Position numbers and translations under genes: made by a program
In this document: positions 3 to 48,589 of the stretch, one piece after another
Layout of the letters: every line of letters begins with the position of its first letter
Position numbering within the stretch: position 1 is the first letter of the stretch
Source of the DNA: Candidatus Heimdallarchaeota archaeon
GTDB taxonomy: Archaea; Asgardarchaeota; Heimdallarchaeia; Heimdallarchaeales; Kariarchaeaceae
Assembly (NCBI GenBank): GCA_015523565.1
Contig: WAKA01000122.1
Coordinates: forward strand, 1-58,938
Length of the DNA stretch: 58,938 nucleotides
Reading direction: 5' to 3'
Notes under the pieces: generated by a model
The model's database searches: none
Seen by the model: only the letters and a program-made list of their open reading frames with translations
What the model was told of the DNA's origin: nothing

Positions 3-1841
3 ATAAAACAGGAAAATACGTCAACAATTGATGCAATCAAAAATGAAAGCCAATCTGCGGATGAATTGTTTGAAAGAACAAATAATGACATCAATGAAAT
101 AGGCATAACATACAATGAACTTATAGAGAGCACAAAGGAGAAATTTAATGCCCTAACTAAAGAAATAATCAGGGATAATACTTTAATGGTCGAGAAAACA
201 CAGGAATCTGGCTTGTCATTTTTAAATATGGAGAAAAACGTCATTCAAGGTCAGTTGGAACAAATCAGGGAATATTTTGACAAGACAATCAGTGACAAGA
301 AAAACGAGATGCAATCTGTAATTGATGAGCAACTGAAAATCATTACAAATCAATTAATCAAAAATTTAGACGAGATGACTAGTTCATTCAAACAAAAGGT
401 GAATGAAACAGTTGATTTGCTCGAGAAAGATTACACCAAAAATTTTGAAGATGTGAAAAACAACATTACAGGAACAATTAACAAATCCATAGAAGAAATA
501 AGGGAAAAAGGAGAAAACCATGCCCAAATGATTGATAAGACAGGAGAAGAGATATCAAACAAAGTATCAGATATTCAAAATTCAATTATTGAAAAATTCC
601 AAGATAAAAAAACAGAAATGTCAAATGGTTTTGAGAGATTGATGCAGATAATTGAGGATATTAATTCAAATTTACATCAATTGAAAGATAGTTCAAATGA
701 TGAACTTCAAGAAATATTGCAGAATTTGCATATTGACGTAACCAATCTATCACAAGGTTTTCAGGATCAATGGAAACAGATTGAGGAACAATATAACCAA
801 ACTCTTGAAAATGCGATGAAGAGAATTGATGAGAGTATTCAATTCACAGAAAATGAAATTTCAACAGCAATTCACGATTTACTTAACTATACCAATGACT
901 TGAAAAATGAACTTGAAACAAGTGTGGAAAATATTAACCAAACATTTACCGTAAAATTGAAAGAGATTCGAGAAAGTTATCAAACGGCATTAGAAAATGT
1001 GGGAAATGATGTCATTCAATCTCAGAATGAGGGAATGGAAAATTTCAATACAAAAGTAATAAGCTTAAAGGAAGAATTGAATGACATTTTTAAGAGAAAT
1101 CAAGCACTTGAAGAACAGTTTATTGAAGAAACAACATCCCAAAGCATTGAAATGATGAATGAAATGTCCAATGCCCTCCATGCTTTTAGTTCACAGGTGG
1201 AAAGCCTTGGAATTAAAAGCTTGAACAATATCAAATCAACTATGGACGAAATGAAATCCACACAGATGGAAAAAACAAAAAGCCTCTTGGATGGTTTTGT
1301 TTCCAATTTTGTTCAGAATACCACAATGGTCACCAGTCAAATCGAAGCACTGGCTAATACACTAGATGGTTTTTCAAAGATTATAGATAGCACAGAAACC
1401 CCATCCATCAAAACGACAACAGTTGTTGGAAAGGAACCCATTGTGGAATACATGGCAGATATGCTTGGAAGAGTGAAAAGTAAGGCAACAATTCTTGTTC
1501 CAAATATTGAAATGGTGCCTGATGAAAAAATCCAGCAACTGCCAACAAGAGCACAAGTTACAGTTATCTCTTATATTGACGAGATTACACATAGGGACTG
1601 GATAGACAAAATGCATTCCTGCAATGCCAATGTTACCCTTCGTACCCTGTCACATGGGGGAAATCTTCCAGATTTCATTGGATGTGAAAGAGAGGGCGAA
1701 GAAATCTTGTTAGGGACAATTGATGAGGGATCCAATGATTATGTGGCAGTAGCCAGCTCATCTGAGTATTTTGTCAAAATACTTGGCAACATTGTGATTT
1801 CAGATTATTCAAGAGGTAAAAGCAAACAACTCCAGAAGTAA
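3..1841 (+). CDS. Long acidic coiled-coil/helical-repeat protein with a C-terminal globular (PLD-like/TrmB C-terminal-like) domain; 5'-truncated
   Basis: The frame is open from position 3, so the gene starts upstream of the window. About 440 aa are E/K/N/Q/I-rich helical sequence, followed by an alpha/beta domain (GKEPIVEYMADMLGRVKSKATILVP...FIGCEREGEEILLG). Confidence 0.6.
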   Translation: MKQENTSTIDAIKNESQSADELFERTNNDINEIGITYNELIESTKEKFNALTKEIIRDNTLMVEKTQESGLSFLNMEKNVIQGQLEQIREYFDKTISDKKNEMQSVIDEQLKIITNQLIKNLDEMTSSFKQKVNETVDLLEKDYTKNFEDVKNNITGTINKSIEEIREKGENHAQMIDKTGEEISNKVSDIQNSIIEKFQDKKTEMSNGFERLMQIIEDINSNLHQLKDSSNDELQEILQNLHIDVTNLSQGFQDQWKQIEEQYNQTLENAMKRIDESIQFTENEISTAIHDLLNYTNDLKNELETSVENINQTFTVKLKEIRESYQTALENVGNDVIQSQNEGMENFNTKVISLKEELNDIFKRNQALEEQFIEETTSQSIEMMNEMSNALHAFSSQVESLGIKSLNNIKSTMDEMKSTQMEKTKSLLDGFVSNFVQNTTMVTSQIEALANTLDGFSKIIDSTETPSIKTTTVVGKEPIVEYMADMLGRVKSKATILVPNIEMVPDEKIQQLPTRAQVTVISYIDEITHRDWIDKMHSCNANVTLRTLSHGGNLPDFIGCEREGEEILLGTIDEGSNDYVAVASSSEYFVKILGNIVISDYSRGKSKQLQK

Positions 1842-2854: not shown

Positions 2855-4048
2855 ATGCGTTTCAGATGGATAATATTGTTAGTGGTAATTGGAAGTTTAA
2901 GCATAAATCCTTCCAATGCATTTGTAATAGAAAGAAGTGACGTGAATCTTCCACAGATCAATATTACAAATGCAACCTATATTTCAGTAGTTTTGTCAAA
3001 TATCCCGACAGAAGTCGATGATGGCTCAGCAGTCAATATTTCAGTGGCATTTACAACTGACGACTTGAATGGTTCATTGGTGGACCTTGCTTTGGAAACA
3101 ACAGCAGGGACATTTGAAAATAATCAATCAATGATATCATTTCAATTTGCGGCTGAAAACAAGACAATTTTTGTTACTTGGTATGCACCAATACTGTATG
3201 AGCAAGATATTGATGCAACAATTTCAGCAAGGGCAGTACTTGATGAGTTGGAAGATACCGATTCAAAACAAGTCCATGTAAAAATGATTTTCTTTGATTT
3301 TGAAGCAACTTGGATAACTTTAGACAAATATTATCAAAATAAAACAGCACCAATCACTTTAAGGGTTACACAAGGTTCAAAACCAATTGAAGGGGCAATG
3401 GTTGGATTTGCCCTTGAGGTTGGTAAGTTTGTTGAAAGCAAGACAGATTCAGTTAACATAGAAACAAATTCAAGCGGATATGCTACTGCTTTCATTGATT
3501 TTAGTGGTCAAGAGTTTCTATTTGAAGAAACAAATATTGAGATTTCTGCTGTCGTTACAAAACTGAAATTCAATGAATTGCTAGTCAATACAACTATAAC
3601 CGTCATAAAGAGTGCATTAATCCCAATGGTAACCATTGATTTCTCTAAAGGAGAGGACAATGGACACCCATTTGCAATATTTGCAATCAACGCAACACTA
3701 AGCGGAAGACCTTGGATTAATGCTACATTCAAAATTGTAGCAACAGGGGGTACTTTTGAGAATGGTGAAAGCCAGATTTTTGTGAAAACAAATGCATCAG
3801 GGTTGGTAACAGTAAAATGGACTGCTGACGGAATTCCTCAAACAAAAGACGATATTGTGGTATTCTTTACTGTAGACCTTACATCAATTGAGTATGGTAC
3901 GATTGATCAAATGTCCTACAATTTGACCATTGCAGGAACAAATCCAGTCCAGAATCTACCAAGTTCACTAACGACTGGAAATTCGGCACCGTTATTCGTA
4001 TTGCCTTGGATATTAGTAGTGCCACAAATCAGGAGGAGGAAAAAATGA
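2855..4048 (+). CDS. Secreted Ig-like (Big_1/invasin-type) surface protein with about 3 domains and a C-terminal hydrophobic-plus-basic anchor
   Basis: Signal peptide MRFRWIILLVVIGSLSINPSNA; TNSSGY and TNASGL...W motifs; many N-x-S/T sequons; C-terminus APLFVLPWILVVPQIRRRKK. Confidence 0.7.
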   Translation: MRFRWIILLVVIGSLSINPSNAFVIERSDVNLPQINITNATYISVVLSNIPTEVDDGSAVNISVAFTTDDLNGSLVDLALETTAGTFENNQSMISFQFAAENKTIFVTWYAPILYEQDIDATISARAVLDELEDTDSKQVHVKMIFFDFEATWITLDKYYQNKTAPITLRVTQGSKPIEGAMVGFALEVGKFVESKTDSVNIETNSSGYATAFIDFSGQEFLFEETNIEISAVVTKLKFNELLVNTTITVIKSALIPMVTIDFSKGEDNGHPFAIFAINATLSGRPWINATFKIVATGGTFENGESQIFVKTNASGLVTVKWTADGIPQTKDDIVVFFTVDLTSIEYGTIDQMSYNLTIAGTNPVQNLPSSLTTGNSAPLFVLPWILVVPQIRRRKK

Positions 4049-7000
4049 TGAAGTTAAGCAATAAAAAATCAGTATCACCAGCTTTTGCAGTGGTTCTTAT
4101 TGTAGCAGTCACAATTGCAGCAGGAGTAAGTGTTTATGTAATTGTGAATAATAATTTTTCAGATAAAACATCTGTAACAGTTACTACCAGTCCCATAATT
4201 TATGATCATAACAATGATGGGATGATTGATGCAATAAAAATTTCAATTAAAAACAATGGACCAGACATGAATGCCTCGTATGTAGCTTTCATTGATTCAG
4301 ATGGTACTTACCAATGGTTCATTGGAGAACAGGAAGAAACTGTTTTGATAAAAGATCAAGAAATTTCAATTCTCTTATTCACAAATTCAACTAGTGATCA
4401 ATTGAATCCAACTTCGACCGTAACAATTCTTTTTGGGGAATCTGTTTCAAACTATGGTCAGACTACAGTTGAGCTTCCTGACAATCCAACAGTGCCAGAT
4501 CCAGTTACGGTCACGGTAACAGCAGGTGGAAAATCTGTTTCAGGAACGCAAATATCCTTTACAACACCTGCAGGGGTACCTGCGAGCGTTCCACCAACCT
4601 CAACGGACAGTAACGGAAAAGCATCATTTTATCTATTGCCAAACAAATATATTGCCAAAACTTCTGATGGCAAGACATCGGAGACATTCGACTCCCTCTA
4701 TACAAAATCAGTCTCAATTTCAGGAACATCACAAACAGTCAGTGTGCTTGTTTTGGATACCAGCGGTTCACCACTTTCAGGAACAAGTGTATATACTACA
4801 GACACATCACAGAATGATTTGGGTGGATCTGCAATTACCAATTCAAGCGGTTATGCAGATTTCACTCTTTCAACAGGGAAATATCTGTTCAGAGCAAATT
4901 ATCTTGGTCAGAATTATTGGTCTTCACAACTTGACGTACCATCAAACACAAAAACATTGACAATCCAGATCAGCTCGGGAACTCTTAATGGAAGTGTCTA
5001 TTTTGGTGATGTAAAGGTTGAAAAGACACTTTACCTTAGGTTGTATACTGCAAACAATGTTTCCCTGAATTATCATTATTCAACTAATGCATCAGGATAT
5101 TTCTCTTTCACTCGCGGAGTAGTTGCAGGTCTGTATCGTTTGAGGTTGACATTTCAAGGCAAATACTATTGGAGTCAAGTACTGTCCACAAGTACCCCCA
5201 ATCTCAAAGCAAACTTTGGAGGGGGATACCTAACAGTCAATATTACTGTAGGAAATGAACCAATCAGAAATAGGGTTTTCACAAGACTTTACAATAGCAA
5301 TAACCAATCCATGTGGTTGTACTCTTACACCAATGCTACAGGAGGTGTCTCATATGGAGCAGTCCCCCGAGGAAATTATCGGATCAGACTCGATTGGTTG
5401 AGGATGTATACATATTCTACAGCATTTAAGCATACAGGCAAAGCGTTAACCGTCAATTACAATGGAGGACCCATGATTTACCAAATCCGTCTTAATGATT
5501 CAGCTATCAGAAACAGGGTACTTGTTAGGTTATTTACTGCAAGTGGTTTGTATACTTACCTGTATGCATACACAAACAGCACAGGATATGTGAACTTTGG
5601 GAATGTACTTGCAGCGAATTATAAATTTAGAATTGATTGGCTGAGAATGTACAACTTTACGTCAACTTTTTACCATGACGGGGTAAGTCCGAAGGTTGTA
5701 GACATTGAAGGATATTCATTGACAGTCAAGATAACAGTAGGAGGAGAACCAATCAGAGAAAGAGTTCTTATAAGACTTTTTACCTCCACAAAGCTGTATA
5801 CATATCTCTATGCATATACTAATGCAACAGGCTACGTAAATTTTGGAAGCATACTTGCAGGTCATTTCAGATTGAGGGTGGATTGGCTTAGGCAGTATGT
5901 ATATTCAAGTGTGTTCACTCACAACAATGCAAGCGCCAAAACCTTAAACTTTGCAGGAGGACAACTAGTTGTTAAAATCAACATTGCAGGAGAACCAATT
6001 CGGGATAGAGTATTGACAAGGCTCTTCTACAGTAGTGGATCAACCAATCTCTATTCCTATTATTATGCATATACAAATGCATCAGGGTATGTGAATTTTG
6101 GAGCAATTCTTAATGGAACTTACAAGCTTAGGATTGATTGGTTAAGGCAATATACCTTCACTAGTCAAATAGACCATCAAGATAACACTCCGAAAACAGT
6201 CAACATGAATGGAGGTAGACTTTTAGTACACCTAACAACAGAAGGATATGATTTGCCAAATAGAGCATTGACAAGACTTTTTGTCAATTCTACATCATTA
6301 TATACCTATCTCTATGCATATACAAATGCCACTGGTTGGGTGGACTACGGCACAATACTTGAAGGAACATATAAATTAAGAATTGATTGGCTTAGACTGT
6401 ATACATTTACAGGTGCATTTACACATGCGAATTCAACACCAAAAGCACTTGATTTACATGGAGGAAAGCTAGTTGTTAAAGTTAACATTGGTGGTGAGCC
6501 TGTTACAAGAAGAACATTAGTAAGACTGTTCACTAACAATTTGCTATATACCTATAAATATGCATATACAAACTCCACAGGATATGCAGATTTTGGACCT
6601 ATCCTTGCAGGAAACTTTACTCTTAGATATGACACATTGAGACAGTATGTGTATTCTACATATTTCTTCCATAACAATAGCATGGTGCAAAGTGTAAACC
6701 ATGCAGGTACAGTAAGACTCACCATCCATGTGCTAGACGGAGCAAATTCAAACGCACCGTTGGCTCAAAACCAATTAATCAGGTTATTTTTGGATACAGG
6801 TACCTATACCTACCTCTATGCATATACGAACAGTTCAGGATATGTAACCTTTACATCAATCCTTAACAATACCTATAAAATCAGATGGGACAATCCAAAT
6901 CCAGACATCTATTCATCAATTTTCAATGTCAACGATACAACAAGTGCCACAATAGAAATTGTGCTAAGTTCCTCTGGTGGATTGATCAATACATCTTTGC

Positions 7001-7056
7001 CTTTTGCAAATGTCGCCACAAATGATACTGTTTGGCGAAAAGAAGATGAATTGTGA
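4045..7056 (+). CDS. Very large type IV pilin-like (class III signal peptide) protein with 10 tandem beta-sandwich (prealbumin/carboxypeptidase-regulatory-like) repeats; putative adhesin
   Basis: N-terminus KKS|VSPAFAVVLIVAVTIAAG matches the archaeal pilin/archaellin pattern. Repeat cores T-N-x-[ST]-G start at 4837, 5083, 5329, 5572, 5818, 6073, 6322, 6568 and 6826. The ATG overlaps the upstream stop (ATGA) and follows AGGAGGAGG. Confidence 0.75.
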   Translation: MMKLSNKKSVSPAFAVVLIVAVTIAAGVSVYVIVNNNFSDKTSVTVTTSPIIYDHNNDGMIDAIKISIKNNGPDMNASYVAFIDSDGTYQWFIGEQEETVLIKDQEISILLFTNSTSDQLNPTSTVTILFGESVSNYGQTTVELPDNPTVPDPVTVTVTAGGKSVSGTQISFTTPAGVPASVPPTSTDSNGKASFYLLPNKYIAKTSDGKTSETFDSLYTKSVSISGTSQTVSVLVLDTSGSPLSGTSVYTTDTSQNDLGGSAITNSSGYADFTLSTGKYLFRANYLGQNYWSSQLDVPSNTKTLTIQISSGTLNGSVYFGDVKVEKTLYLRLYTANNVSLNYHYSTNASGYFSFTRGVVAGLYRLRLTFQGKYYWSQVLSTSTPNLKANFGGGYLTVNITVGNEPIRNRVFTRLYNSNNQSMWLYSYTNATGGVSYGAVPRGNYRIRLDWLRMYTYSTAFKHTGKALTVNYNGGPMIYQIRLNDSAIRNRVLVRLFTASGLYTYLYAYTNSTGYVNFGNVLAANYKFRIDWLRMYNFTSTFYHDGVSPKVVDIEGYSLTVKITVGGEPIRERVLIRLFTSTKLYTYLYAYTNATGYVNFGSILAGHFRLRVDWLRQYVYSSVFTHNNASAKTLNFAGGQLVVKINIAGEPIRDRVLTRLFYSSGSTNLYSYYYAYTNASGYVNFGAILNGTYKLRIDWLRQYTFTSQIDHQDNTPKTVNMNGGRLLVHLTTEGYDLPNRALTRLFVNSTSLYTYLYAYTNATGWVDYGTILEGTYKLRIDWLRLYTFTGAFTHANSTPKALDLHGGKLVVKVNIGGEPVTRRTLVRLFTNNLLYTYKYAYTNSTGYADFGPILAGNFTLRYDTLRQYVYSTYFFHNNSMVQSVNHAGTVRLTIHVLDGANSNAPLAQNQLIRLFLDTGTYTYLYAYTNSSGYVTFTSILNNTYKIRWDNPNPDIYSSIFNVNDTTSATIEIVLSSSGGLINTSLPFANVATNDTVWRKEDEL
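4500..6970 (+). repeat. Intragenic tandem repeat, ~243-258 bp (81-86 aa) period, about 10 copies
   Basis: Consensus of later copies: GEPIRxRVLxRLF...LYTYLYAYTNxTGYVNFGxILxGxYKLRIDWLRxYxF. Spacings between cores are 246, 246, 243, 246, 255, 249, 246 and 258 bp. Confidence 0.9.
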
Positions 7057-7065
7057 GGTGGTTTT

Positions 7066-9009
7066 GTGAAGTACCAAACAATTATCCTCCTGTTATTTAT
7101 CCCATTTGCATCGTTTCTACCCACTTATGCAAATTATGCGGATTTGGATGGATCTGCGATAATAGCGCCAAACACAGTGCAATCAGGCAAGGAAGTCATC
7201 ATTGATATCTATGTGGCAAATAGTACAAACAGTCCAATACAAGGCGCTACCGTTTCAATAATGGCATCAAATGGAACATTTCTTTCAGTCGTTAATGGTG
7301 ACCCGCCTACATTTTTGGATAATTTGACAGTTGAAGCAGTAAGTAATGCTTCAGGTTATGTCAGAGTATTATGGAAAGCACCAATTACAAATTTCCTGTT
7401 TCCAACCATAGACATACAGTTCGTTGCAGATGTTTTCTATCAATCAGAAGGAATTTCAATTACACTAATACATAATCTCGTAGTATCAGAACCAGATGTG
7501 AGCATGATACAGAACATTGCCACAAATATGACTTCTGAAATTCAGGCAGGAAGTACCTTATCCATAAAAACAGAAATCAAGGACACCCAAAACCAACCTG
7601 CAACGGGTGTACAAGTAACAATGCAAACAGGTGTCGGCAATTTCTCAGAAACACAGCAATCACAAGTGCAGAAAATCACCAATGAGAACGGGATTGTGAT
7701 TGCCTCTTGGCAAGCGCCAAATCTTACAATTGACAATCCAATAGTCAATGATACTTTGGACATCTTTGTTGAAGCGGCACCAAATGTCAATAATTCCATT
7801 TCAGTTCCTTTTGCAGTTCTCCTTACCGCCAACGGAACAATCACTTTGAACATATTTTCACCAGAAAAAGTCAATGAAAGCCAGATTGTATCATTGGCAT
7901 TCAATGTCAATTATGGAAATACATCGGCTAGTGGAGCAGAAATTCAGATATCCGCAGAAAGGGGACTGTTCAACAATGATCAGGGAAGCTTTTCCCTTTC
8001 TGATAAAATTCTTGTTGCAAATGAAACTGGGTTTGCCCAGACACAATGGCAAGCACCAATATTAGATGGCAACAATGCGGAAATTAGTGTCTTCTCAGTC
8101 ATTGTTCAATATGGTGAAAAATCAATATTTGACCAATTTGAAATTTCAGTCAGTCCCATATTGTCAAAAGCAAGTATCCAATGGCTTTCTGAAACAGAGG
8201 GATGGATACAGAACAAGACAATTCCAGTAAAACTCAAGGTGCTTGATCCGTCAACTGCTCTCCCCATAGAAAATGCGACGGTTCAATTGTCATCTGAAAT
8301 TGGAATTTGGAACGAGACACATACATCTACAGTGGAATTGCTCACTAGTACTGATGGGATTGCAATTGCCCATTTAGACCTTTCAGATGTCAGTTTTGAG
8401 TTTGAGTTCAATGAAGTGCAAATACTTGCCACAGTGGCTGGCAAGAAATTGACTACAATTACATCAAACATAACATTGAATGTCCAAAGAGTCATCACAT
8501 ATCCTGAAGGAACATCCACAATATCCAAGTCAACAATTTCACAAGGAGAAAATGTCACTGTTTCTGTAAGCGTTACACAAAATGGTCTGAAGGCACAAGG
8601 AATTACTGTTGAATTGATTGCAACGGCAGGAAGCTTTCCGCAATCCCAATCAGGCATAAAAACAACATATAGAATAAAAACAGACGCCAATGGAGAAGTA
8701 AAAGCAATATGGGCAGCATCCGACCTACCAGCATCATCAAATGACAATTTGACCATATATATAACAGTCAATTTGATATATGAAGGAAAATCAATTGAGG
8801 TAAATATCCACAAAATTGATGTCTTAATTCCTAAAAAGACTACAGAAGCAAATCAAAAAGAGACTGCAACAAACCCATTTGAATCAGCTGATCTATCAGA
8901 TCCTGGAAACAAGCAGACACAATTGCTTGGAAGTACAGTACTGATAGGTGTTATTTTAGGAGCTTCTGTTGGCGTAATAGTCATAATGAGAAAAGTCAAG
9001 AAAGCATAA
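7066..9009 (+). CDS. Secreted Ig-like (Big_1-type) surface protein with about 5 domains and a C-terminal TM anchor; paralog of 2855..4048
   Basis: GTG start after GAGGTG; signal peptide; repeated G-A-x-V...G-x-F...T-N-x-x-G...W-x-A-P units; C-terminal TM LLGSTVLIGVILGASVGVIVIM followed by RKVKKA. Confidence 0.75.
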   Translation: MKYQTIILLLFIPFASFLPTYANYADLDGSAIIAPNTVQSGKEVIIDIYVANSTNSPIQGATVSIMASNGTFLSVVNGDPPTFLDNLTVEAVSNASGYVRVLWKAPITNFLFPTIDIQFVADVFYQSEGISITLIHNLVVSEPDVSMIQNIATNMTSEIQAGSTLSIKTEIKDTQNQPATGVQVTMQTGVGNFSETQQSQVQKITNENGIVIASWQAPNLTIDNPIVNDTLDIFVEAAPNVNNSISVPFAVLLTANGTITLNIFSPEKVNESQIVSLAFNVNYGNTSASGAEIQISAERGLFNNDQGSFSLSDKILVANETGFAQTQWQAPILDGNNAEISVFSVIVQYGEKSIFDQFEISVSPILSKASIQWLSETEGWIQNKTIPVKLKVLDPSTALPIENATVQLSSEIGIWNETHTSTVELLTSTDGIAIAHLDLSDVSFEFEFNEVQILATVAGKKLTTITSNITLNVQRVITYPEGTSTISKSTISQGENVTVSVSVTQNGLKAQGITVELIATAGSFPQSQSGIKTTYRIKTDANGEVKAIWAASDLPASSNDNLTIYITVNLIYEGKSIEVNIHKIDVLIPKKTTEANQKETATNPFESADLSDPGNKQTQLLGSTVLIGVILGASVGVIVIMRKVKKA

Positions 9010-9125
9010 GACCGATACAAAAATCCCCCATACATTTAACATTTTTATGACAAAAAACCATTCTTGCAAGAAAACATCGATAAGCCTTTAATGGGATTGT
9101 TTCCCCCTAGCATTGGAGATAATCT

Positions 9126-9317
9126 GTGAAGCTACATCAAAGGCTATTCTTTTATACAATGATTATTATGGGGATTACATTTCTTATCATAGGGTATGCC
9201 CTTGATGAGTCAAAGATCCTTGAAACAGTAGATAACAGTCGCCTTGAAAGACTTGGCGCCTGGAGAGATTTTTTGACCACATGGCTATGGGGAATGAACC
9301 CCCCCAATAATCCATAG
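9126..9317 (+). CDS. Small single-pass membrane protein, probably co-transcribed with the downstream 4Fe-4S protein
   Basis: GTG start after GGAG; one hydrophobic helix; its TAG stop overlaps the SD (GGTGAGG) of the next gene. Confidence 0.55.
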   Translation: MKLHQRLFFYTMIIMGITFLIIGYALDESKILETVDNSRLERLGAWRDFLTTWLWGMNPPNNP

Positions 9318-9326
9318 GTGAGGCAT

Positions 9327-10271
9327 ATGTCAACAGCAAACAATCCAGAAACGAATTTCTTTGCCAATTGGCTCAATACTTTATCACATAAAAGAATCAG
9401 GATGTTAAGATTGTTAACGCAAATAACATTCTTTTTAGTCCTCAATGGAGCTTTTCTCAAGCTGAAAAGAATGCCATTGCCCCTTCCTGTCCATATACCG
9501 CCTGGGAGCCCATATGCAATTGCTTGGGGTGGGTTTAGTGCCATACAGTTCATATTGTCCAGTGGACAATTCCCGTTTTTTGCGTTAGGGATATTCTTCA
9601 TCACAGGAGCGATAAGCGGAAGGCTTTTCTGCGGATGGGTTTGCCCAGTTGGATTTTGGCAGGATATTCTTGATTTTATAGGCTCCATCAGCAGGATTCC
9701 TAAATTTCAGGTAACGAGAAAAACGGATGAAGGCTTTAAGGAAATCCCCATGACATTGGCAGTTGCCGCTTTTGTGTGGAGCTCGTGGATGGGGATATCT
9801 AGACTTAAAGGAGAACTGGTTGCAGACAATGCCTTTTCAAGAATGATATTTGATGCGGTGGATCCAGCGGGAACATTATTTGTCACATGGTTTTACGCCA
9901 TTTTCTGGAAAATAGTCCCTGGAAAAGACAGCTTTTTCTCAGATGTGGGTTCGGATCTTAATTTCGTGATTTTCAATTCCATAGTACTTGTTGCAGTATT
10001 GATTATGTCTCTCAAAGTCCCAAGATTTTATTGCCGATATATTTGTCCAACTGGAGCGCTTCTAGGATATTGCAGTCAAGCAAGCCTCTTGACTATCAAA
10101 AGAAATCCTTTGAATTGTGAGGAAGGTTGCCGGGAATGTGAAAGAGCTTGTCCAATGAAAGTTCCATTAACTGAGTTTGGACTTGAAGGCATTTCAGACC
10201 AAGCATGCATTCAATGTGGGGACTGTATAGATAAATGTCCAGAAGCCCTTTCATTTGGAATAAGAATTTGA
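9327..10271 (+). CDS. NapH/MauN/YccM-like membrane polyferredoxin (4Fe-4S binding protein)
   Basis: Two CxxxCP motifs (GRLFCGWVCPVG, RFYCRYICPTG), C-terminal CxxxCxxCxxxCP and CxxCxxCxxxCP, and several TM helices. Confidence 0.9.
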   Translation: MSTANNPETNFFANWLNTLSHKRIRMLRLLTQITFFLVLNGAFLKLKRMPLPLPVHIPPGSPYAIAWGGFSAIQFILSSGQFPFFALGIFFITGAISGRLFCGWVCPVGFWQDILDFIGSISRIPKFQVTRKTDEGFKEIPMTLAVAAFVWSSWMGISRLKGELVADNAFSRMIFDAVDPAGTLFVTWFYAIFWKIVPGKDSFFSDVGSDLNFVIFNSIVLVAVLIMSLKVPRFYCRYICPTGALLGYCSQASLLTIKRNPLNCEEGCRECERACPMKVPLTEFGLEGISDQACIQCGDCIDKCPEALSFGIRI

Positions 10272-10368
10272 AATTGAAATTTTCCGAGTGTAAAGTTGGA
10301 TGAAATTGTGCAACCAATAGGTAGCGTTTAAAATAGGTTCGTTCATTTCAAGTTAGGAGCAGAAAAAC

Positions 10369-10755
10369 ATGTCATCTCAAACATTGAACCTAAGAGAAGA
10401 CCTGAAAACAATCATGGCAGAATACAAAAAATTGAATCCAAGACTCAGAAGGTTAGACGTTGCAATATTAGGGTTGACAGGATTATTCATCGTTAATTTT
10501 CTGATTGTCACCATCGCAAAAGAAGTGGATGCATTCACTATTTTGGCAACTCCCGCAAACATGGCCCTTATGGCATTTCCATTAGCCATGGCAGGATTAC
10601 TTATGTTTGTGAGAATTGATGTCACAAGAACCTTCAAAAAAGGAGTGAAACAGGAAGACAAGGACGCCATCATGAAGAAAAGCCTTCTTGATCTGCAGAT
10701 AGGTGCAGGAATCATTGCATTATTGCTTCTTGTAGCAGTTTTTTTCCCTTATTAG
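10369..10755 (+). CDS. Hypothetical membrane protein (3 TM)
   Basis: SD AGGAG, upstream TATA-like TTTAAAA and three hydrophobic segments. Confidence 0.6.
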   Translation: MSSQTLNLREDLKTIMAEYKKLNPRLRRLDVAILGLTGLFIVNFLIVTIAKEVDAFTILATPANMALMAFPLAMAGLLMFVRIDVTRTFKKGVKQEDKDAIMKKSLLDLQIGAGIIALLLLVAVFFPY

Positions 10756-10839
10756 AATTCAATCAGCATTTGCGACAAAACAAAATAATCTAAAAAATTG
10801 AACAATAAAAATATGATACAATAATTCTATTAAGATAAA

Positions 10840-11154
10840 TTAGAGTTTTCTGAAAATTTCGTATCTCTTTGCTCTTGGACGGTTCAAAACAGCAACTTTT
10901 CCGCATGTAGGACAAGTGATCCTTAAATCAATCTTTTTACTTGTTTTCGAAGCCATTTTTGTTTGGGTAACTGGTTTCTTGGAGTACCTACCCAAGTTAC
11001 CATGACCCCTTCTTCTATGCTTTTGTCGTCTGTGGCTCCAGTTGAGACCACCAGATCTCCTACCACCTTTTTCTTGTTTTACTTTTCCTTCAACATGGGT
11101 CTGGCATTTTCTGCAATATACTTTAATTTTATCTGGAATTCTAGCCATATTCAT
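10840..11154 (-). CDS. rpl44e: 50S ribosomal protein L44e (eL42)
   Basis: IPDKIKVYCRKCQTH...KTSKKIDLRITCPTCGK zinc ribbon; highly basic. Confidence 0.92.
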   Translation of the reverse strand: MNMARIPDKIKVYCRKCQTHVEGKVKQEKGGRRSGGLNWSHRRQKHRRRGHGNLGRYSKKPVTQTKMASKTSKKIDLRITCPTCGKVAVLNRPRAKRYEIFRKL

Positions 11155-11330
11155 CACTTGTTACGTACAAGGTTCCTTCCGATTCCAGTTAATTAAAATT
11201 ATCGATAACAAACTCCCAATATTCTTCTTGATTGAATTTTTTGTCAATGATGTGTCAATTTTCATTCTACATACATTTTTATCATTGATTGAGTAAGTAT
11301 TTTTGCATGAAACCAAAATTTCCTTTTGAC

Positions 11331-30825: not shown

Positions 30826-31593
30826 GTGGAGCTTTCTGAAGAAGATACTAAACTTCTATTTTCCTTGCTTAAACTTAACATGAAAAAAATTGTGTTGACT
30901 GGACCAACAGGTGCAGGAAAAACCACAATTTTTAAGCTGATTTTTCCCTATGATGAGAAAAATCTGGCAGAGGTTGATAGAAAAATAGAAAAAGAACAGA
31001 AAACCGAAATTTCCATTTCACAGGTAGCAAAAGACCAATTCAAGGATTCCACCACCACGGTGAGCTTTAATGTAACATCAGTAGTTGCATGTATTGATAG
31101 GGCAAATAGAATGCATTTGTTCCATTTAAGAGGTGATTTGGGGTTTTTGATTGAAAACGAATATGATTACATCCTTCCTATGCAAATTGTTGACTTAGCG
31201 GGTCAGGATCGATTTTCGTTTATGGTGGAAACAATGGTCAAAGGCGCTAGTGGAGCCATACTTGTGGCAGATGGGACAAACGTCAGTAGTATTAATAGAT
31301 TGCCAGAATTCAAGGAATATATCAGGGATGAGGAACTTAGAACAGGAAGAAAAATTGAGACCGTCGCGTTTGTCAACAAATCAGACATGCGAGAGCAAAA
31401 CCTGTATGTAGGATCAGAGATTGCAAGATCTGCACTTCCACAGGAAATTCCAGTTTTTGAAACAACAATTTATGATAAAGACACCCTTATTTTCCCGATT
31501 AGACAATTAATTGTCAAGACATTTGATGATCCATTGAATAACGAAAAATTGAAAGAATATTTACGCAAAATGAAACAAGTTAAAAGAAAATAA
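30826..31593 (+). CDS. Small GTPase (MglA/Arf-like) with inserts
   Basis: G1 GPTGAGKTT, G2 STTTV, G3 DLAGQDRF and G4 VNKSD. Confidence 0.85.
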   Translation: MELSEEDTKLLFSLLKLNMKKIVLTGPTGAGKTTIFKLIFPYDEKNLAEVDRKIEKEQKTEISISQVAKDQFKDSTTTVSFNVTSVVACIDRANRMHLFHLRGDLGFLIENEYDYILPMQIVDLAGQDRFSFMVETMVKGASGAILVADGTNVSSINRLPEFKEYIRDEELRTGRKIETVAFVNKSDMREQNLYVGSEIARSALPQEIPVFETTIYDKDTLIFPIRQLIVKTFDDPLNNEKLKEYLRKMKQVKRK

Positions 31594-36998: not shown

Positions 36999-39014
36999 AT
37001 GATTATCATAAATCGCAAATCCATCAGTCCCATAATTGCAATAGGCTTATTGATTGCCTTGACCATTTCTGGAGGGGCTGCAATTGCAGTTATCCTTTCA
37101 CAGTCTCAATCAAAAACACCTACTCTTTCTGTCTTAGGACTTAATGGTTCAACTACAAGTCCAATTTTGGCCACTGCCTCTATTGTTCAAATAACAGAAT
37201 ATCCCGACCCCTTGGTTTCAAAAGACATTGTGGGAATTGAAGTGGAAGTAACAAATCTTGGTTCAAAGGACATTTACGTGATCGATATCGATGTCATTGT
37301 GGGTACCACGTTATTGGATTTATATGCAGAATGGAAAATTCAATCATCCACGGGAGCAATTAAGGTTAATGAAAATGGCGACCCATATACTGTAGGTGAC
37401 AAAATTGGAGGATATAAACAAAAACCAGGAACTATAAATTATTTTGTTGAATTAGACAGCAGTGATTATGATAACTCTTTTGCAAGGATTCCTGCAACAT
37501 CAAACTTATTTTTTGCAAAAGTAAAGGTTGGAAATAATCCAGTTCATGTGGATCAAAGCATACAAACACAATCTGTTGCTTTAAAAGACTTTTATTCACC
37601 TGTAGGCTATCGAGTTGCATTATTCCATCATGGAACTGAAACGTCAGATGCGCGAAAGAAATTGGAAAAGGTATTCACAGATACAAGATTTCAATCAATC
37701 ACCAATACAAAAAACATGAACATCAGTTTTGATCCCAACATTGATGAATACGATTTTAGTTCCCCAACCCATGGAATAAATGCAACAGCAGTGGCTGAGA
37801 CCTATGACTTAGTCTTAGTAGCCATGTGGGCAGTTCATAACAATATAGCCAACGAGCTAATGGAAATTTTCAATAAAGGAGTTGCACTAGTATTCTATGG
37901 AACCTTAAGTGGATTTGGCAATTATGCCCAAATTTCATCACAAATTAACCAAACAGCTACAGAAGAGATTACTGGATTACTGTTTGATGGTTGTTCAACG
38001 TGTGACAGCGTTAAAACGAAAAATACGAATGCAAACAACACCTATTGGTTCATTCCGAATGGTAAACCAGGGATAGTGGCAGATCTTCAACCATACAATG
38101 TATTTTTTGAGGACAACAAGAAAAAGGATAAACTAGGATATGACATAGCAACATTGACTAACAACACAAAAATTTCAACAAAAGTCTATGGATACCATAA
38201 ATACGAACTCCGAGACAAGAAAAACAGCAATGCACTGTTTCTTAATAAAACTTCACCATTATATGTAATCCGTGAGACTGCATCCAACAAAAAAGTGGCA
38301 ACGTTTGCCATGAATCACAAAAGCGTATTTAATAACAAGAAAATGAGCCATCGGTTTTTTGTGCCTAGAAATCTTATATTTGCGGCGTTAGGGGAGGACA
38401 GGAAGTTGATAAGACATACAAAAATTCAGATGAACACATTCACCTTAACCCAAAATCCGGGCAATACACAAGAATTCAGAATTAGTTGGACTGCAACTGT
38501 AACAGAAGGAGATATCAACCTAGTAGATGGAGGAATAAATTTCACCCTTTATATGCCAACAGACTATTCCATCTCATTCAGAAAAGGCAAAGAAAAAAAG
38601 GTTCAAGTTGACATAGAAACAAGTGGATCAACGAAATTATTTACTAAAACAATAAAAATTGATTTGCAGTCTAACAATGTAATCCATATTGATGTAGGAC
38701 ATAATGTAAGCAAAGGAAAAAGAGGATTGAAATACCTCTATAGAAATGACAATCTTTCATTAATTTTGCCTGTAAGAGGAAATAATCGTCTTAAATGGCT
38801 TCGATTGGCGTCAGGAGACGATCCAACCCAAGTAAAACAGTGGAAAATCGTAACAAACTGGACAAATGTGGACATGTCAAAAGACACATTAAGTGTCACT
38901 TATAACAAGGCAATCCAACCATTATTGGAAATAAAAGCCATGATTCAAAGACAGGCAATTGATATAAAAGGAACAAAGTTGCAAAAACAAATTGTCACGC
39001 GAATCAATCTATAA
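36999..39014 (+). CDS. Large type IV pilin-like (class III signal peptide) surface protein
   Basis: RKS|ISPIIAIGLLIALTISGGAAIAVIL, then a pilin-like beta segment (VEVTNLGSKDIYV), then a large Lys/Asn-rich extracellular region. Confidence 0.7.
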   Translation: MIIINRKSISPIIAIGLLIALTISGGAAIAVILSQSQSKTPTLSVLGLNGSTTSPILATASIVQITEYPDPLVSKDIVGIEVEVTNLGSKDIYVIDIDVIVGTTLLDLYAEWKIQSSTGAIKVNENGDPYTVGDKIGGYKQKPGTINYFVELDSSDYDNSFARIPATSNLFFAKVKVGNNPVHVDQSIQTQSVALKDFYSPVGYRVALFHHGTETSDARKKLEKVFTDTRFQSITNTKNMNISFDPNIDEYDFSSPTHGINATAVAETYDLVLVAMWAVHNNIANELMEIFNKGVALVFYGTLSGFGNYAQISSQINQTATEEITGLLFDGCSTCDSVKTKNTNANNTYWFIPNGKPGIVADLQPYNVFFEDNKKKDKLGYDIATLTNNTKISTKVYGYHKYELRDKKNSNALFLNKTSPLYVIRETASNKKVATFAMNHKSVFNNKKMSHRFFVPRNLIFAALGEDRKLIRHTKIQMNTFTLTQNPGNTQEFRISWTATVTEGDINLVDGGINFTLYMPTDYSISFRKGKEKKVQVDIETSGSTKLFTKTIKIDLQSNNVIHIDVGHNVSKGKRGLKYLYRNDNLSLILPVRGNNRLKWLRLASGDDPTQVKQWKIVTNWTNVDMSKDTLSVTYNKAIQPLLEIKAMIQRQAIDIKGTKLQKQIVTRINL

Positions 39015-46154: not shown

Positions 46155-46284
46155 TAATTGGTGTAGAGTCTTGCAGAATAAAAAATTTGGCGTCACTGAA
46201 CTGATTTAAATGTGTAATCTGGGCTTTATAATAAAGAATTGTTATAAAGGAATTTGACAATGATAACTTGTTAAGGTGCAGGAT

Positions 46285-47772
46285 ATGAGTGAGGAAACTT
46301 ACGTTGACGTTCTGAGGTATTCAAGTAGGAGAACCTTATTGGGATTGAATGTCATATTGTTGATAGCAGGGGCGGTTTTGGCTTCCTTCATTGCTTTTTC
46401 TCTGAGTAATTTGCTGGCTGACAATAATATAGGAGATAATATTCTTTCATTTTTTGTTTTGATGTTGTACTTTTTCATTTTCATCATGATAGTAATGTTT
46501 ATCGAATATTTTTTCTCCATTGGATTATTTTATTCACAGAAAACAAGAATTGCAGGATTTTTGGTTTTCATTGGCATTTCCTTTTCTTTTGGGTTTTCAC
46601 TTGCTTTGATCAAGTATACAGATAAAGTGAATGTTGAATTGGTCTCTACACTTTACTTTCTTTCAACTTTGGCGTCTCTAGGAAATGGTGTATTCTTCCT
46701 TTTGACTGCAAGTGGACCGAAAACGGAAACAGACATCAGAAGAAGGTTTGATGAAATAAAGGAAGAAATTGCTGAAAAGAAAATATCGGACATGAAAATT
46801 GATGAAGCCCTTCGAAGAGCCGAACGTTGGATTATTAATAAGCAAAGAGATGATGGTACGTGGGGAGAAAAAGAGCCTTTATTTGAAACCGCCTCAGTAG
46901 GTAGAATGTTTCTATTGACAAATCGTGGACCAGATTATTCTTGGATTAAAATTGTTGATGGAAATGAAGAAATGCGCACAGTTGAACAGATTTATTACTT
47001 GGTTTTGGAAGCACTTGAAACTGCCTCAATTCAAGAAACCTATCAAAGCCTCCTTCCTGTACTTTTTACGTTAACCGTCAATAATGAAATCATCAACTTT
47101 GATGACATAGCCATTCTTGAACAACGTGCAAAGCTTGCCAATTTCAGTGAGTGGGATTTTGTTAGCCAATTGGAAAAGAAAGAAGCAAAACTTACGAAAG
47201 AAATTCCACCACTAGTTGCATTGGGACCGATTTTCAAATATATGGAAGATTATGAAGGTGCACAAATCGTGGCAGACATTTTGGCAAATACATTCAACAT
47301 TATTATGAATAGGTCTGTCAAAAGATTTGCAAGCATAGAAGACGATACCGAAATCCCCATGCTCATTATTGGTGCATTGTATAATTCATTGGTTGAGTTA
47401 TTGGAAAGAGAACCTTACTCTAAGGCACCTGAAATGTATGGTAATCAACAAAACACATTAGACATGTTGGGAATTTCCCTTCCATCTCAAGGGGGAAAAA
47501 TCAAGGCAGAAGTTCGTTTAGGAAGAGTCAGAGAATACTTAAAGTCAAACCAAGAAATTGATGGATCTTGGGATGGAACCATAACTGCAACAGCGGAATG
47601 CCTTAGGGCAATAGCCCATGGAGACTCAATCGAAAGCAACGAGGTCAAATTTGCAACATATTTCCTTATTGCACAGCAGAAGCCAGACGGTTCATGGAAT
47701 AATGATATAGTGACAACCACACAAGTCATAAAGGCACTTTGGGCAGTCCAGTCAAGAATCATCATTCATTGA
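46285..47772 (+). CDS. 4-TM membrane protein with a C-terminal prenyltransferase/squalene-cyclase-type (QW-repeat) alpha/alpha barrel
   Basis: QW motifs KQRDDGTW, NQEIDGSW and QQKPDGSW; four N-terminal TMs. Confidence 0.7.
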   Translation: MSEETYVDVLRYSSRRTLLGLNVILLIAGAVLASFIAFSLSNLLADNNIGDNILSFFVLMLYFFIFIMIVMFIEYFFSIGLFYSQKTRIAGFLVFIGISFSFGFSLALIKYTDKVNVELVSTLYFLSTLASLGNGVFFLLTASGPKTETDIRRRFDEIKEEIAEKKISDMKIDEALRRAERWIINKQRDDGTWGEKEPLFETASVGRMFLLTNRGPDYSWIKIVDGNEEMRTVEQIYYLVLEALETASIQETYQSLLPVLFTLTVNNEIINFDDIAILEQRAKLANFSEWDFVSQLEKKEAKLTKEIPPLVALGPIFKYMEDYEGAQIVADILANTFNIIMNRSVKRFASIEDDTEIPMLIIGALYNSLVELLEREPYSKAPEMYGNQQNTLDMLGISLPSQGGKIKAEVRLGRVREYLKSNQEIDGSWDGTITATAECLRAIAHGDSIESNEVKFATYFLIAQQKPDGSWNNDIVTTTQVIKALWAVQSRIIIH

Positions 47773-47773
47773 G

Positions 47774-48589
47774 GTGCAGCAATTGCAATTCTTCTGTGAG
47801 CTTTTATTTGCCTCTATCACATTTATTGCATTAACAGTGGGGGCAATTCAAGACATCCTTACAAGATATACAAGTAATAAGATTTGGATAATCCAAGGAG
47901 CCAGTGGTTTTATCCTGCTAATAATTTGTGGCATTATTGAGCCATACACACCGTTGGAACTTATCGGGATTGGGTTAAACATTGCTTTTGCTGTCTTTTT
48001 TGGGTTCTTGTTCCTATTGATTGGGGCTTGGGGGGCAGGTGATACAAAAGCATTGTTTGCCCTAGGCATTTCATCACCAATTGTGTTTTCATTCATCAAA
48101 ATGGAGATTCCCCCACAATTAAGCCTCGTACCTCTCTTCCTGATAATTGCAAATTTTGTTTACGCAATTGCAATACTGATATTTACAAACCTCATATGGA
48201 ATTTGCTTTCTCTAAGAAAATTTGGAAATTGGTTCAAGGAAACGAATGCATCTATTTTTATAAAATTGGTGACTGTTCTTACAGCAGTTCAAATACCTTT
48301 GGACAAGCTCAAAGTAGAATCGTTCTTGGATCCAATAGAAACTTTCAATGAAAAGTGGCATATTGAATTTTCCATTTTCAATGATTACAACCAAGATGAT
48401 GAAATACTTGAGCAACAGGAAAAAAAATTAAGAAAGGATATCAGGGAGAAAGCAGACGAAACAGGCAGGAAATATATTTGGGTAAGACCACAAATTCCAG
48501 GACTTGTGATTTTCTGGCTTTCATACATAATCTGGATATTTTTTGGTTCTGCAGGTGTAACCATCATCTCATGGGTTATTGGGATTTGA
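47774..48589 (+). CDS. Prepilin/prearchaellin peptidase (A24, FlaK/PibD-like)
   Basis: Catalytic AIQDILTR and WGAGDTKAL (GxGD); C-terminal IWVRPQIPGL of archaeal A24B type. Confidence 0.88.
   Translation: MQQLQFFCELLFASITFIALTVGAIQDILTRYTSNKIWIIQGASGFILLIICGIIEPYTPLELIGIGLNIAFAVFFGFLFLLIGAWGAGDTKALFALGISSPIVFSFIKMEIPPQLSLVPLFLIIANFVYAIAILIFTNLIWNLLSLRKFGNWFKETNASIFIKLVTVLTAVQIPLDKLKVESFLDPIETFNEKWHIEFSIFNDYNQDDEILEQQEKKLRKDIREKADETGRKYIWVRPQIPGLVIFWLSYIIWIFFGSAGVTIISWVIGI

Follow-up and report, generated by a model that had tools for sequence, protein, structure and literature searches.

A 58,938-nt contig of Candidatus Heimdallarchaeota archaeon (family Kariarchaeaceae; assembly GCA_015523565.1, contig WAKA01000122.1), analysed here over its whole length and called the window, carries near its start three forward-strand genes, A, B and C, which form one tightly coupled unit. 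The middle gene encodes a large protein in which an archaeal pilin module is followed by ten tandem beta-sandwich domains, and the two flanking genes encode paralogous Ig-like proteins with C-terminal anchors. We favour, with about even confidence, the explanation that this operon encodes a self-contained module for accessory adhesion at the cell surface of Heimdallarchaeia, centred on an archaeal modular pilin that pilus machinery would present. The features of the operon are:

2855-4048, + strand: gene A, open reading frame (ORF) of 397 aa
4045-7056, + strand: gene B, ORF of 1003 aa
7066-9009, + strand: gene C, ORF of 647 aa with a GTG start
4031-4048, + strand: translational coupling of A to B, with the Shine-Dalgarno sequence AGGAGGAGG at 4031-4039 and the ATGA overlap at 4045-4048
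7057-7068, + strand: coupling of B to C, with GGTGG (7057-7061) as Shine-Dalgarno sequence in the 9-nt spacer, then GTG
4045-4488, + strand: pilin module of B, with the leader MMKLSNKKS, a predicted cut before VSP, a helix and a beta head
4489-6972, + strand: ten tandem CarboxypepD_reg/prealbumin-like beta-sandwiches of B (aa 149-976), from the AlphaFold2 (AF2) model and Pfam
3956-4045, + strand: C-terminal tail of A that resembles a sorting signal, with [S/A]P[ILF], a hydrophobic stretch and a basic cluster; candidate signal for heimdallarchaeosortase
2825-2831, + strand: TATA-like box TTTATAA, read from the sequence; putative promoter element
9042-9046, + strand: run of five T, 33 nt past the stop of C; possible archaeal terminator

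A sequence-only reading of this DNA had proposed that the three genes are tightly coupled behind one TATA-like box, and both points were borne out. The TGA stop of A overlaps the ATG of B at 4045-4048, and B ends with a TGA at 7054-7056, from which C is separated by 9 nt that include GGTGG. The TTTATAA box lies about 27 nt before the ATG of A at 2855, and the operon transcript is thus probably leaderless or near-leaderless. Cysteine is absent from all three proteins, and their isoelectric points (pI) are 4.55 for A, 9.20 for B and 4.51 for C. Each protein is enriched in N-x-S/T sequons beyond the 95th percentile of the genome, with 13 observed against 4.5 expected in A, 28 against 16.7 in B, and 19 against 9.2 in C.

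Pilin module and ten-domain stalk of protein B

Protein B starts with MMKLSNKKS/VSPAF (the slash marks the predicted cut), followed by a hydrophobic helix. As class III features we read KKS/VSPAFAVVLIVAVTIAAG, a basic leader, a small residue at position -1 and the hydrophobic helix. TIGR02537, the NCBIfam model for the archaellin/type IV pilin N-terminal domain, matched B with 22.1 bits against a cut-off of 20, and Pfam PF07790 is precomputed for the B homologues P0010 and P0016. Alignment of 19 B orthologues revealed the near-invariant motif [KR][KR][AGS]VSPV[IV]A..LL. The profile of these orthologues matched 8fj5_A (E = 2.1e-6; 8fj5 is deposited as 20 chains) and 8gi2_A (Natrinema PilA2, E = 2.1e-4) in the PDB, over positions 5-119, that is, over the helix plus the beta head. 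Searched as a single sequence against PDB sequences, the pilin module gave nothing meaningful. The hydrophobic helix spans residues 10-37 in the sequence; the AF2 model of B, with a predicted local distance difference test (pLDDT) score of 85.6, places the helix at 12-37 and the beta head at 41-148. Moreover, a 142-aa pilin of the same genome shares 35% identity with B over 92 aa and has the identical NKKS/VSP site. The class III signal assigned to B in the sequence-only reading is thus upheld, with TIGR02537 over its cut-off and an A24 peptidase encoded in the genome.

Behind the pilin module, Pfam recognised CarboxypepD_reg (PF13620, 63.8 bits vs 32.3) and an Ig_DR_A0283-like domain (62.2 bits), and the AF2 model confirmed the earlier count of ten tandem domains without a C-terminal transmembrane segment (TM). 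No C-terminal hydrophobic segment or anchor was found in B, either in its sequence or in the model, where the residues past 976 form a disordered tail. The last seven or eight domains are Tyr-rich and each carries a conserved YTN[AS][ST]G sequon; a Tyr content of 7-9% is kept among the B orthologues. Foldseek with B returned only generic tandem-Ig stalks (GhpA, TIE protein, macroglobulins and BcpA).

Pairwise identity among seven of the domains is 40-60%, whereas each repeat is 56-77% identical to its positional counterpart in the genus-mate G001. Since the repeats are closest to their positional counterparts, the array appears to be old and stable; recent concerted evolution was considered and rejected, the repeats being positionally orthologous within the genus. 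Tandem Repeats Finder detected no repeat in the DNA of B, and the repetition exists at the protein level only. With a pilin module and a grafted ten-domain stalk, the predicted architecture of B is that of a modular pilin, defined as a pilin module fused at its C-terminus to domains that are not specific to type IV pili (T4P) (PMC8179133).

Proteins A and C and their anchors

A and C are paralogues, as had been proposed from sequence alone: BLASTP aligned A to residues 266-570 of C with E = 4e-25, and both have Ig-like, Big/macroglobulin (MG)-like folds, with three such beta-sandwich domains in A and five in C. Both proteins have an N-terminal Sec-type hydrophobic signal and a C-terminal hydrophobic-plus-basic tail. 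The AF2 model of C (pLDDT 82.6) consists of a signal peptide, five beta-sandwiches at 30-587, a disordered linker of 38 residues (588-625), a TM at 626-643 and a basic tail; C is thus predicted to be a type I membrane glycoprotein.

Foldseek aligned C to the MG domains of complement C3/C5 and A2M (E = 1e-17 to 5e-20, C3 being the best), and VIA-align gave Z scores of 11-13 to the extender domains of intimin, invasin and RTX adhesins. The likeness to the complement proteins lies in the MG-like fold alone, as C has no thioester domain (TED), no bait region and no A2M Pfam match. No sequence relative was found when the PDB was searched with the C-like profile. The ESM Atlas gave leads only, namely Big_1/MG4 clusters and a Thorarchaeota cluster at 0.84.

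The anchors of the two proteins were previously taken to be of one kind, which did not hold. A ends in an archaeosortase-type tail made up of SAPLF, 12-14 hydrophobic residues and RRRKK, in which Pro369 is invariant in 4 orthologues. In contrast, C and its orthologues have a conventional Gly-rich TM, and C lacks the motif of the A tail. Genome-wide, 52 ORFs end in a tail of the pattern [S/T/A]P[ILF]-hydrophobic-basic; shuffling of the tails left about 4 such matches, and internal windows gave 1. The same genome encodes a candidate enzyme for such tails:

G000:C4:11223-11822, - strand: heimdallarchaeosortase gene (locus L046), NF045528 scores of 140.5 and 217.7 bits (cut-off 130)

The gene was identified by the NCBIfam model; Pfam Exosortase_EpsH reached 18.3 bits on it, under the cut-off, and was not accepted. 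A heimdallarchaeosortase is encoded in 58 of 61 relatives. The NCBIfam CTERM models matched none of the tails of A, of the A orthologues and of seven other proteins of this genome, and the link between tail and heimdallarchaeosortase is therefore one that we infer. On the sequence of its tail, A is probably lipid-anchored after archaeosortase processing.

Conservation of the gene pair and the pilus genes of the genome

Homologues come under the name Candidatus Heimdallarchaeota, which together with the heimdallarchaeosortase supports the assignment to the Asgard archaea. Conservation of the triad in related genomes had been named as a test of the sequence-only reading, which the reading withstood: the order A-B-C was found in the genus-mates G001 and G003 and in the family member G007. 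In relatives at the order and class level, two closed genomes included, a C-like gene of about 620 aa is directly followed by a B-like gene of about 920 aa. A search with a profile for C-like genes, followed by a hidden Markov model (HMM) for the class III N-terminus, placed an A/C-like gene directly beside a class III giant gene in five families of the class (f1, f2, f3, f4 and f6). The flanking genes vary by genome and are all housekeeping genes (amidohydrolase, urocanase, radical SAM, aminotransferase), and overlapping or near-abutting reading frames are retained in the orthologous loci. In one class-level relative (G054:C7, L032) the C-like and B-like genes are divergent, with one reading frame at 5117-7912 (-) and the other at 8173-9696 (+), an adjacency without translational coupling.

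A second, divergent pair is present in the same genome on C131 (L034), at 5454-9317 (-) and 9328-11202 (-). Here a C-like gene of 624 aa with an SPI-type tail lies directly upstream of the gene for a 1287-aa class III protein (RKA/VSP), and the same pair occurs also in G001:C2 and G002:C221. A 1286-aa gene upstream of the C131 pair was considered as a third member and rejected, because its product lacks a signal peptide and falls into neither a Pfam nor an NCBIfam family.

At E <= 1e-25, the B family was found in 15 of 251 sampled Asgard genomes, and only 2 of the 20 genomes of genus g11 and none of the 17 of family f5 carry it; the C-like family was found in 23 of the 251. Both are patchy within genera. 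Outside the class, the 251 genomes held zero B-family matches at this threshold and three marginal C-like matches at E of about 1e-13. At the genus level C retains 32-39% identity and B 53-65%. Taken together, the conserved adjacency amid changing neighbours and the patchy spread suggest a functionally coupled accessory module.

One gene further along the window bears on the processing of B:

47774-48589, + strand: archaeal prepilin peptidase (A24, FlaK/PibD-type), presumed B-processing enzyme, the sole such match in the assembly

In the genome search this protein scored 32.5 vs 29.9 with Arc_PepC_II and 28.8 vs 26.5 with Peptidase_A24, so that the A24 peptidase previously read at 47774 is confirmed by two models above cut-off. 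The statement that no assembly ATPase or TadC gene lies nearby was also correct, as the window holds no T2SSE or T2SSF match above cut-off; a T2SSE match at 30829-31038 was weak, fell under the cut-off and was not counted as an assembly ATPase. Such genes were found elsewhere in the genome: T2SSE ATPases on C145 and C157, and two TadC-like genes at the end of C72 (C72:18212-20156). The 142-aa pilin with the NKKS/VSP site is encoded at the end of C198 (G000:C198:19442-19870). The position of both the TadC pair and the short pilin at contig ends suggests a single type IV pilus locus that was fragmented in the assembly. T2SSE and T2SSF genes occur in this genome and in 4 of 4 relatives checked; no more than about 5 kb separates the ATPase from the TadC pair in G015 and in G003. 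In the closed genome G015 (3.08 Mb) the TadC/ATPase genes (2.80 Mb) and the A/C-like and B-like pair (0.09 Mb) are a calculated distance of about 366 kb apart, and in G003 the pair and the pilus assembly genes are on different contigs.

Other genes of the window deserve mention beside these. At 36999-39014 (+) a second large class III protein (671 aa, RKS/ISP) is encoded, with no Pfam family; it scored 28 bits on the pilin N-terminus HMM and 15.4 vs 20 on TIGR02537, and resembles B in its signal only. Ser occupies position -1 in five of the six clear class III sites of the genome (KKS/VSP, RKS/ISP, RRS/ISP; C198, C122, C57, C181), compared with Ala or Gly in order-level relatives, and this pattern in the sequences suggests a genus-specific peptidase preference and a likely blind spot of FlaFind. 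An ORF of 498 aa at 46276-47772 (+), which ends 2 nt before the peptidase gene, shows weak matches to squalene/hopene-cyclase C-terminal repeats (E of about 1e-9, well short of the cut-offs). Two genes upstream of the operon, a 591-aa ORF at 66-1841 (+) has apolipoprotein/phasin-like amphipathic coiled-coil repeats at scores below the Pfam cut-off.

Proposed action of the operon, rival explanations and significance

We propose that the class III signal would take B to the membrane, where the prepilin peptidase (47774-48589) would cut it after KKS. The single, unlinked type IV pilus machinery, composed of the TadC pair, an ATPase and the 142-aa pilin, would then incorporate B, because B retains a complete pilin module of helix and beta head. 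B would be a low-abundance subunit, probably at the tip, from which ten glycosylated beta-sandwiches would project as a stalk of an estimated 35-40 nm. The co-translated A and C would be held on the same cell surface, A probably by a lipid anchor and C by its Gly-rich TM, and as dedicated partners of B they may provide a docking or priming platform or act as a co-adhesin. A complex prediction with B 10-555 and C 259-647 returned a score of 0.00, which is no answer and counts neither way for binding.

Several points weigh against this proposal. Pfam Pilin_N (PF07790) reached 16.6 bits on B itself, under its gathering score of 25.2, and the residue at -1 is Ser rather than Gly or Ala, with which B may fail the G/A rule of FlaFind. 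Pilus assembly genes are never found linked to the pair, and a rare tip subunit would not be expected to be translationally coupled one-to-one with a membrane protein. The sequence-only reading had joined a basic B chain with two acidic stalks; this proved to be lineage-specific, since order-level B orthologues are acidic (pI 4.2-5.0) and A and C of G003 have a pI of about 8, and charge complementarity as a conserved principle was rejected on these values. Finally, the public sequencing runs consist only of DNA from one hydrothermal-vent study, with no RNA or expression data listed.

The main alternative, less probable but quite possible, is that B is cleaved by the A24 peptidase and stays unpolymerised in the membrane, its helix packed against the anchors of C and A. 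The product would be a bindosome-like, glycosylated, heteromeric fibrillar structure, part of the 'complex surface structures' on S-layer-less Asgard cells. Such a complex would fit the gene arrangement, in which a partner with a C-terminal anchor is always present and assembly genes never accompany the pair, and the translational coupling suggests stoichiometric production. The TM of the C-like proteins is Gly-rich and the helix of B is rich in small residues, and most class III proteins of this genome are large (650-1290 aa). Sulfolobus sugar-binding proteins bear class III signals (PMC3047682, PMC3387779), and Ca. L. ossiferum has complex surface structures without an S-layer (PMC12993045). 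However, B has a full pilin head homologous to filament-forming pilins, which would be superfluous in a mere anchor, and a bindosome too needs pilus-type assembly genes.

Two further explanations carry less weight. Large, glycosylated, membrane-anchored beta-sandwich proteins could also be S-layer or sheath subunits of a general envelope coat instead of an accessory adhesin, and the tail of A recalls the way in which the S-layer glycoprotein of haloarchaea is anchored through PGF-CTERM (PMC7157517). We consider this quite improbable: an S-layer should be near-universal, whereas B and the C-like proteins are spread patchily (15/251 and 23/251), which disfavours a coat role; the same genome holds a second divergent paralogous pair, and the beads-on-a-string models are elongated and have no lattice-forming features. 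That A, B and C are functionally independent, sharing a transcription unit without forming a complex or having a joint function, we regard as about equally improbable, even though each protein has its own targeting and anchoring route. Mere co-location is disfavoured by the conserved adjacency, for an A/C-like gene stays beside a class III giant across five families while all flanking genes change, and the overlapping or near-abutting reading frames are retained in orthologous loci.

The accessory adhesion module that we favour has relatives among known systems, so that the earlier statement that no characterised system has this layout was too strong. Modular pilins are widespread in bacteria and are presented by T4P, as described in a survey that did not include archaea (PMC8179133). 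Bacterial examples (S. sanguinis PilB/PilC, CofB of enterotoxigenic E. coli, V. cholerae TcpB) resemble B in having a class III signal, a complete pilin module and, C-terminal to it, non-pilin modules; the filament presumably displays them at its tip for adhesion, and one modular pilin has 860 aa and 12 repeats. B differs from them in being archaeal, in its Pilin_N/TIGR02537-type module instead of IPR012902, in its ten CarboxypepD_reg-type domains and in being encoded off any pilus locus. It is also obligatorily paired with an Ig-like membrane protein, a partner that the bacterial proteins do not have.

In archaea, Makarova et al. 2016 (PMC4858521) predicted that T4P loci of Thermoproteales and of other archaea pair a large adhesin or minor pilin with S-layer-like proteins that carry a C-terminal TM. 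There too, both proteins are large and secreted, the first having a signal peptide and the second a C-terminal TM, but the pairs lie inside ATPase/TadC loci, are Cys-rich and are sequence-unrelated as far as tested. In contrast, the Heimdallarchaeial pair stands alone, contains no Cys and is confined to one Asgard class; in both cases the system is known from computational prediction only. The Sulfolobus bindosome (PMC3047682) similarly involves a large non-pilin cargo with a class III signal that is processed by PibD and held at the surface. There, however, the cargo is a solute-binding protein that belongs with an ABC transporter and the Bas assembly genes; in the Heimdallarchaeial locus a binding-protein fold, a transporter and dedicated assembly genes are all absent. 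With the haloarchaeal PilA-type pilins (8fj5, 8gi2) B shares the homologous leader, helix and beta head and the [KR][AGS]VSPV motif, but these are major pilins of 145-165 aa and B has about 850 residues more.

For A and C, the beta-sandwich fold and the tandem stalk are like those of intimin/invasin, of RTX-adhesin extenders (Big_1/BIg) and of MG domains. A and C differ from these in having no thioester, bait region, beta-barrel, RTX module or distal lectin/ligand domain, and in being anchored by a C-terminal TM or a sortase-type tail, and the identity is merely 10-18%. The new elements are the class-restricted, stand-alone gene pair that joins a modular pilin to an Ig-like membrane protein, and the mixture of anchoring chemistries.

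A more specific role can be imagined for the operon, which we hold to be rather unlikely. It would be a dedicated system of cell-cell contact or recognition in Heimdallarchaeia, in which B, displayed at a pilus tip or as a long membrane-rooted fibre, binds fast-evolving A/C-type glycoproteins or glycans on neighbouring cells or syntrophic partners. If true, it would amount to a specific, evolvable adhesion code for S-layer-less Asgard cells, with the pilin module repurposed as an anchor independent of canonical pilus loci.

In summary, the Asgard archaea studied so far have no S-layer and carry undefined 'complex surface structures', and models of eukaryogenesis give a central place to contact between cells and their partners. 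The [S/T/A]P[ILF] signal is a plausible substrate motif of the heimdallarchaeosortase and would help to define the Heimdallarchaeial surface proteome. The operon described here extends to archaea the concept of the modular pilin, which until now was surveyed only in bacteria, and provides a concrete, conserved candidate for a Heimdallarchaeial surface fibre, with a pilin-rooted ten-domain stalk and a dedicated Ig-like partner.

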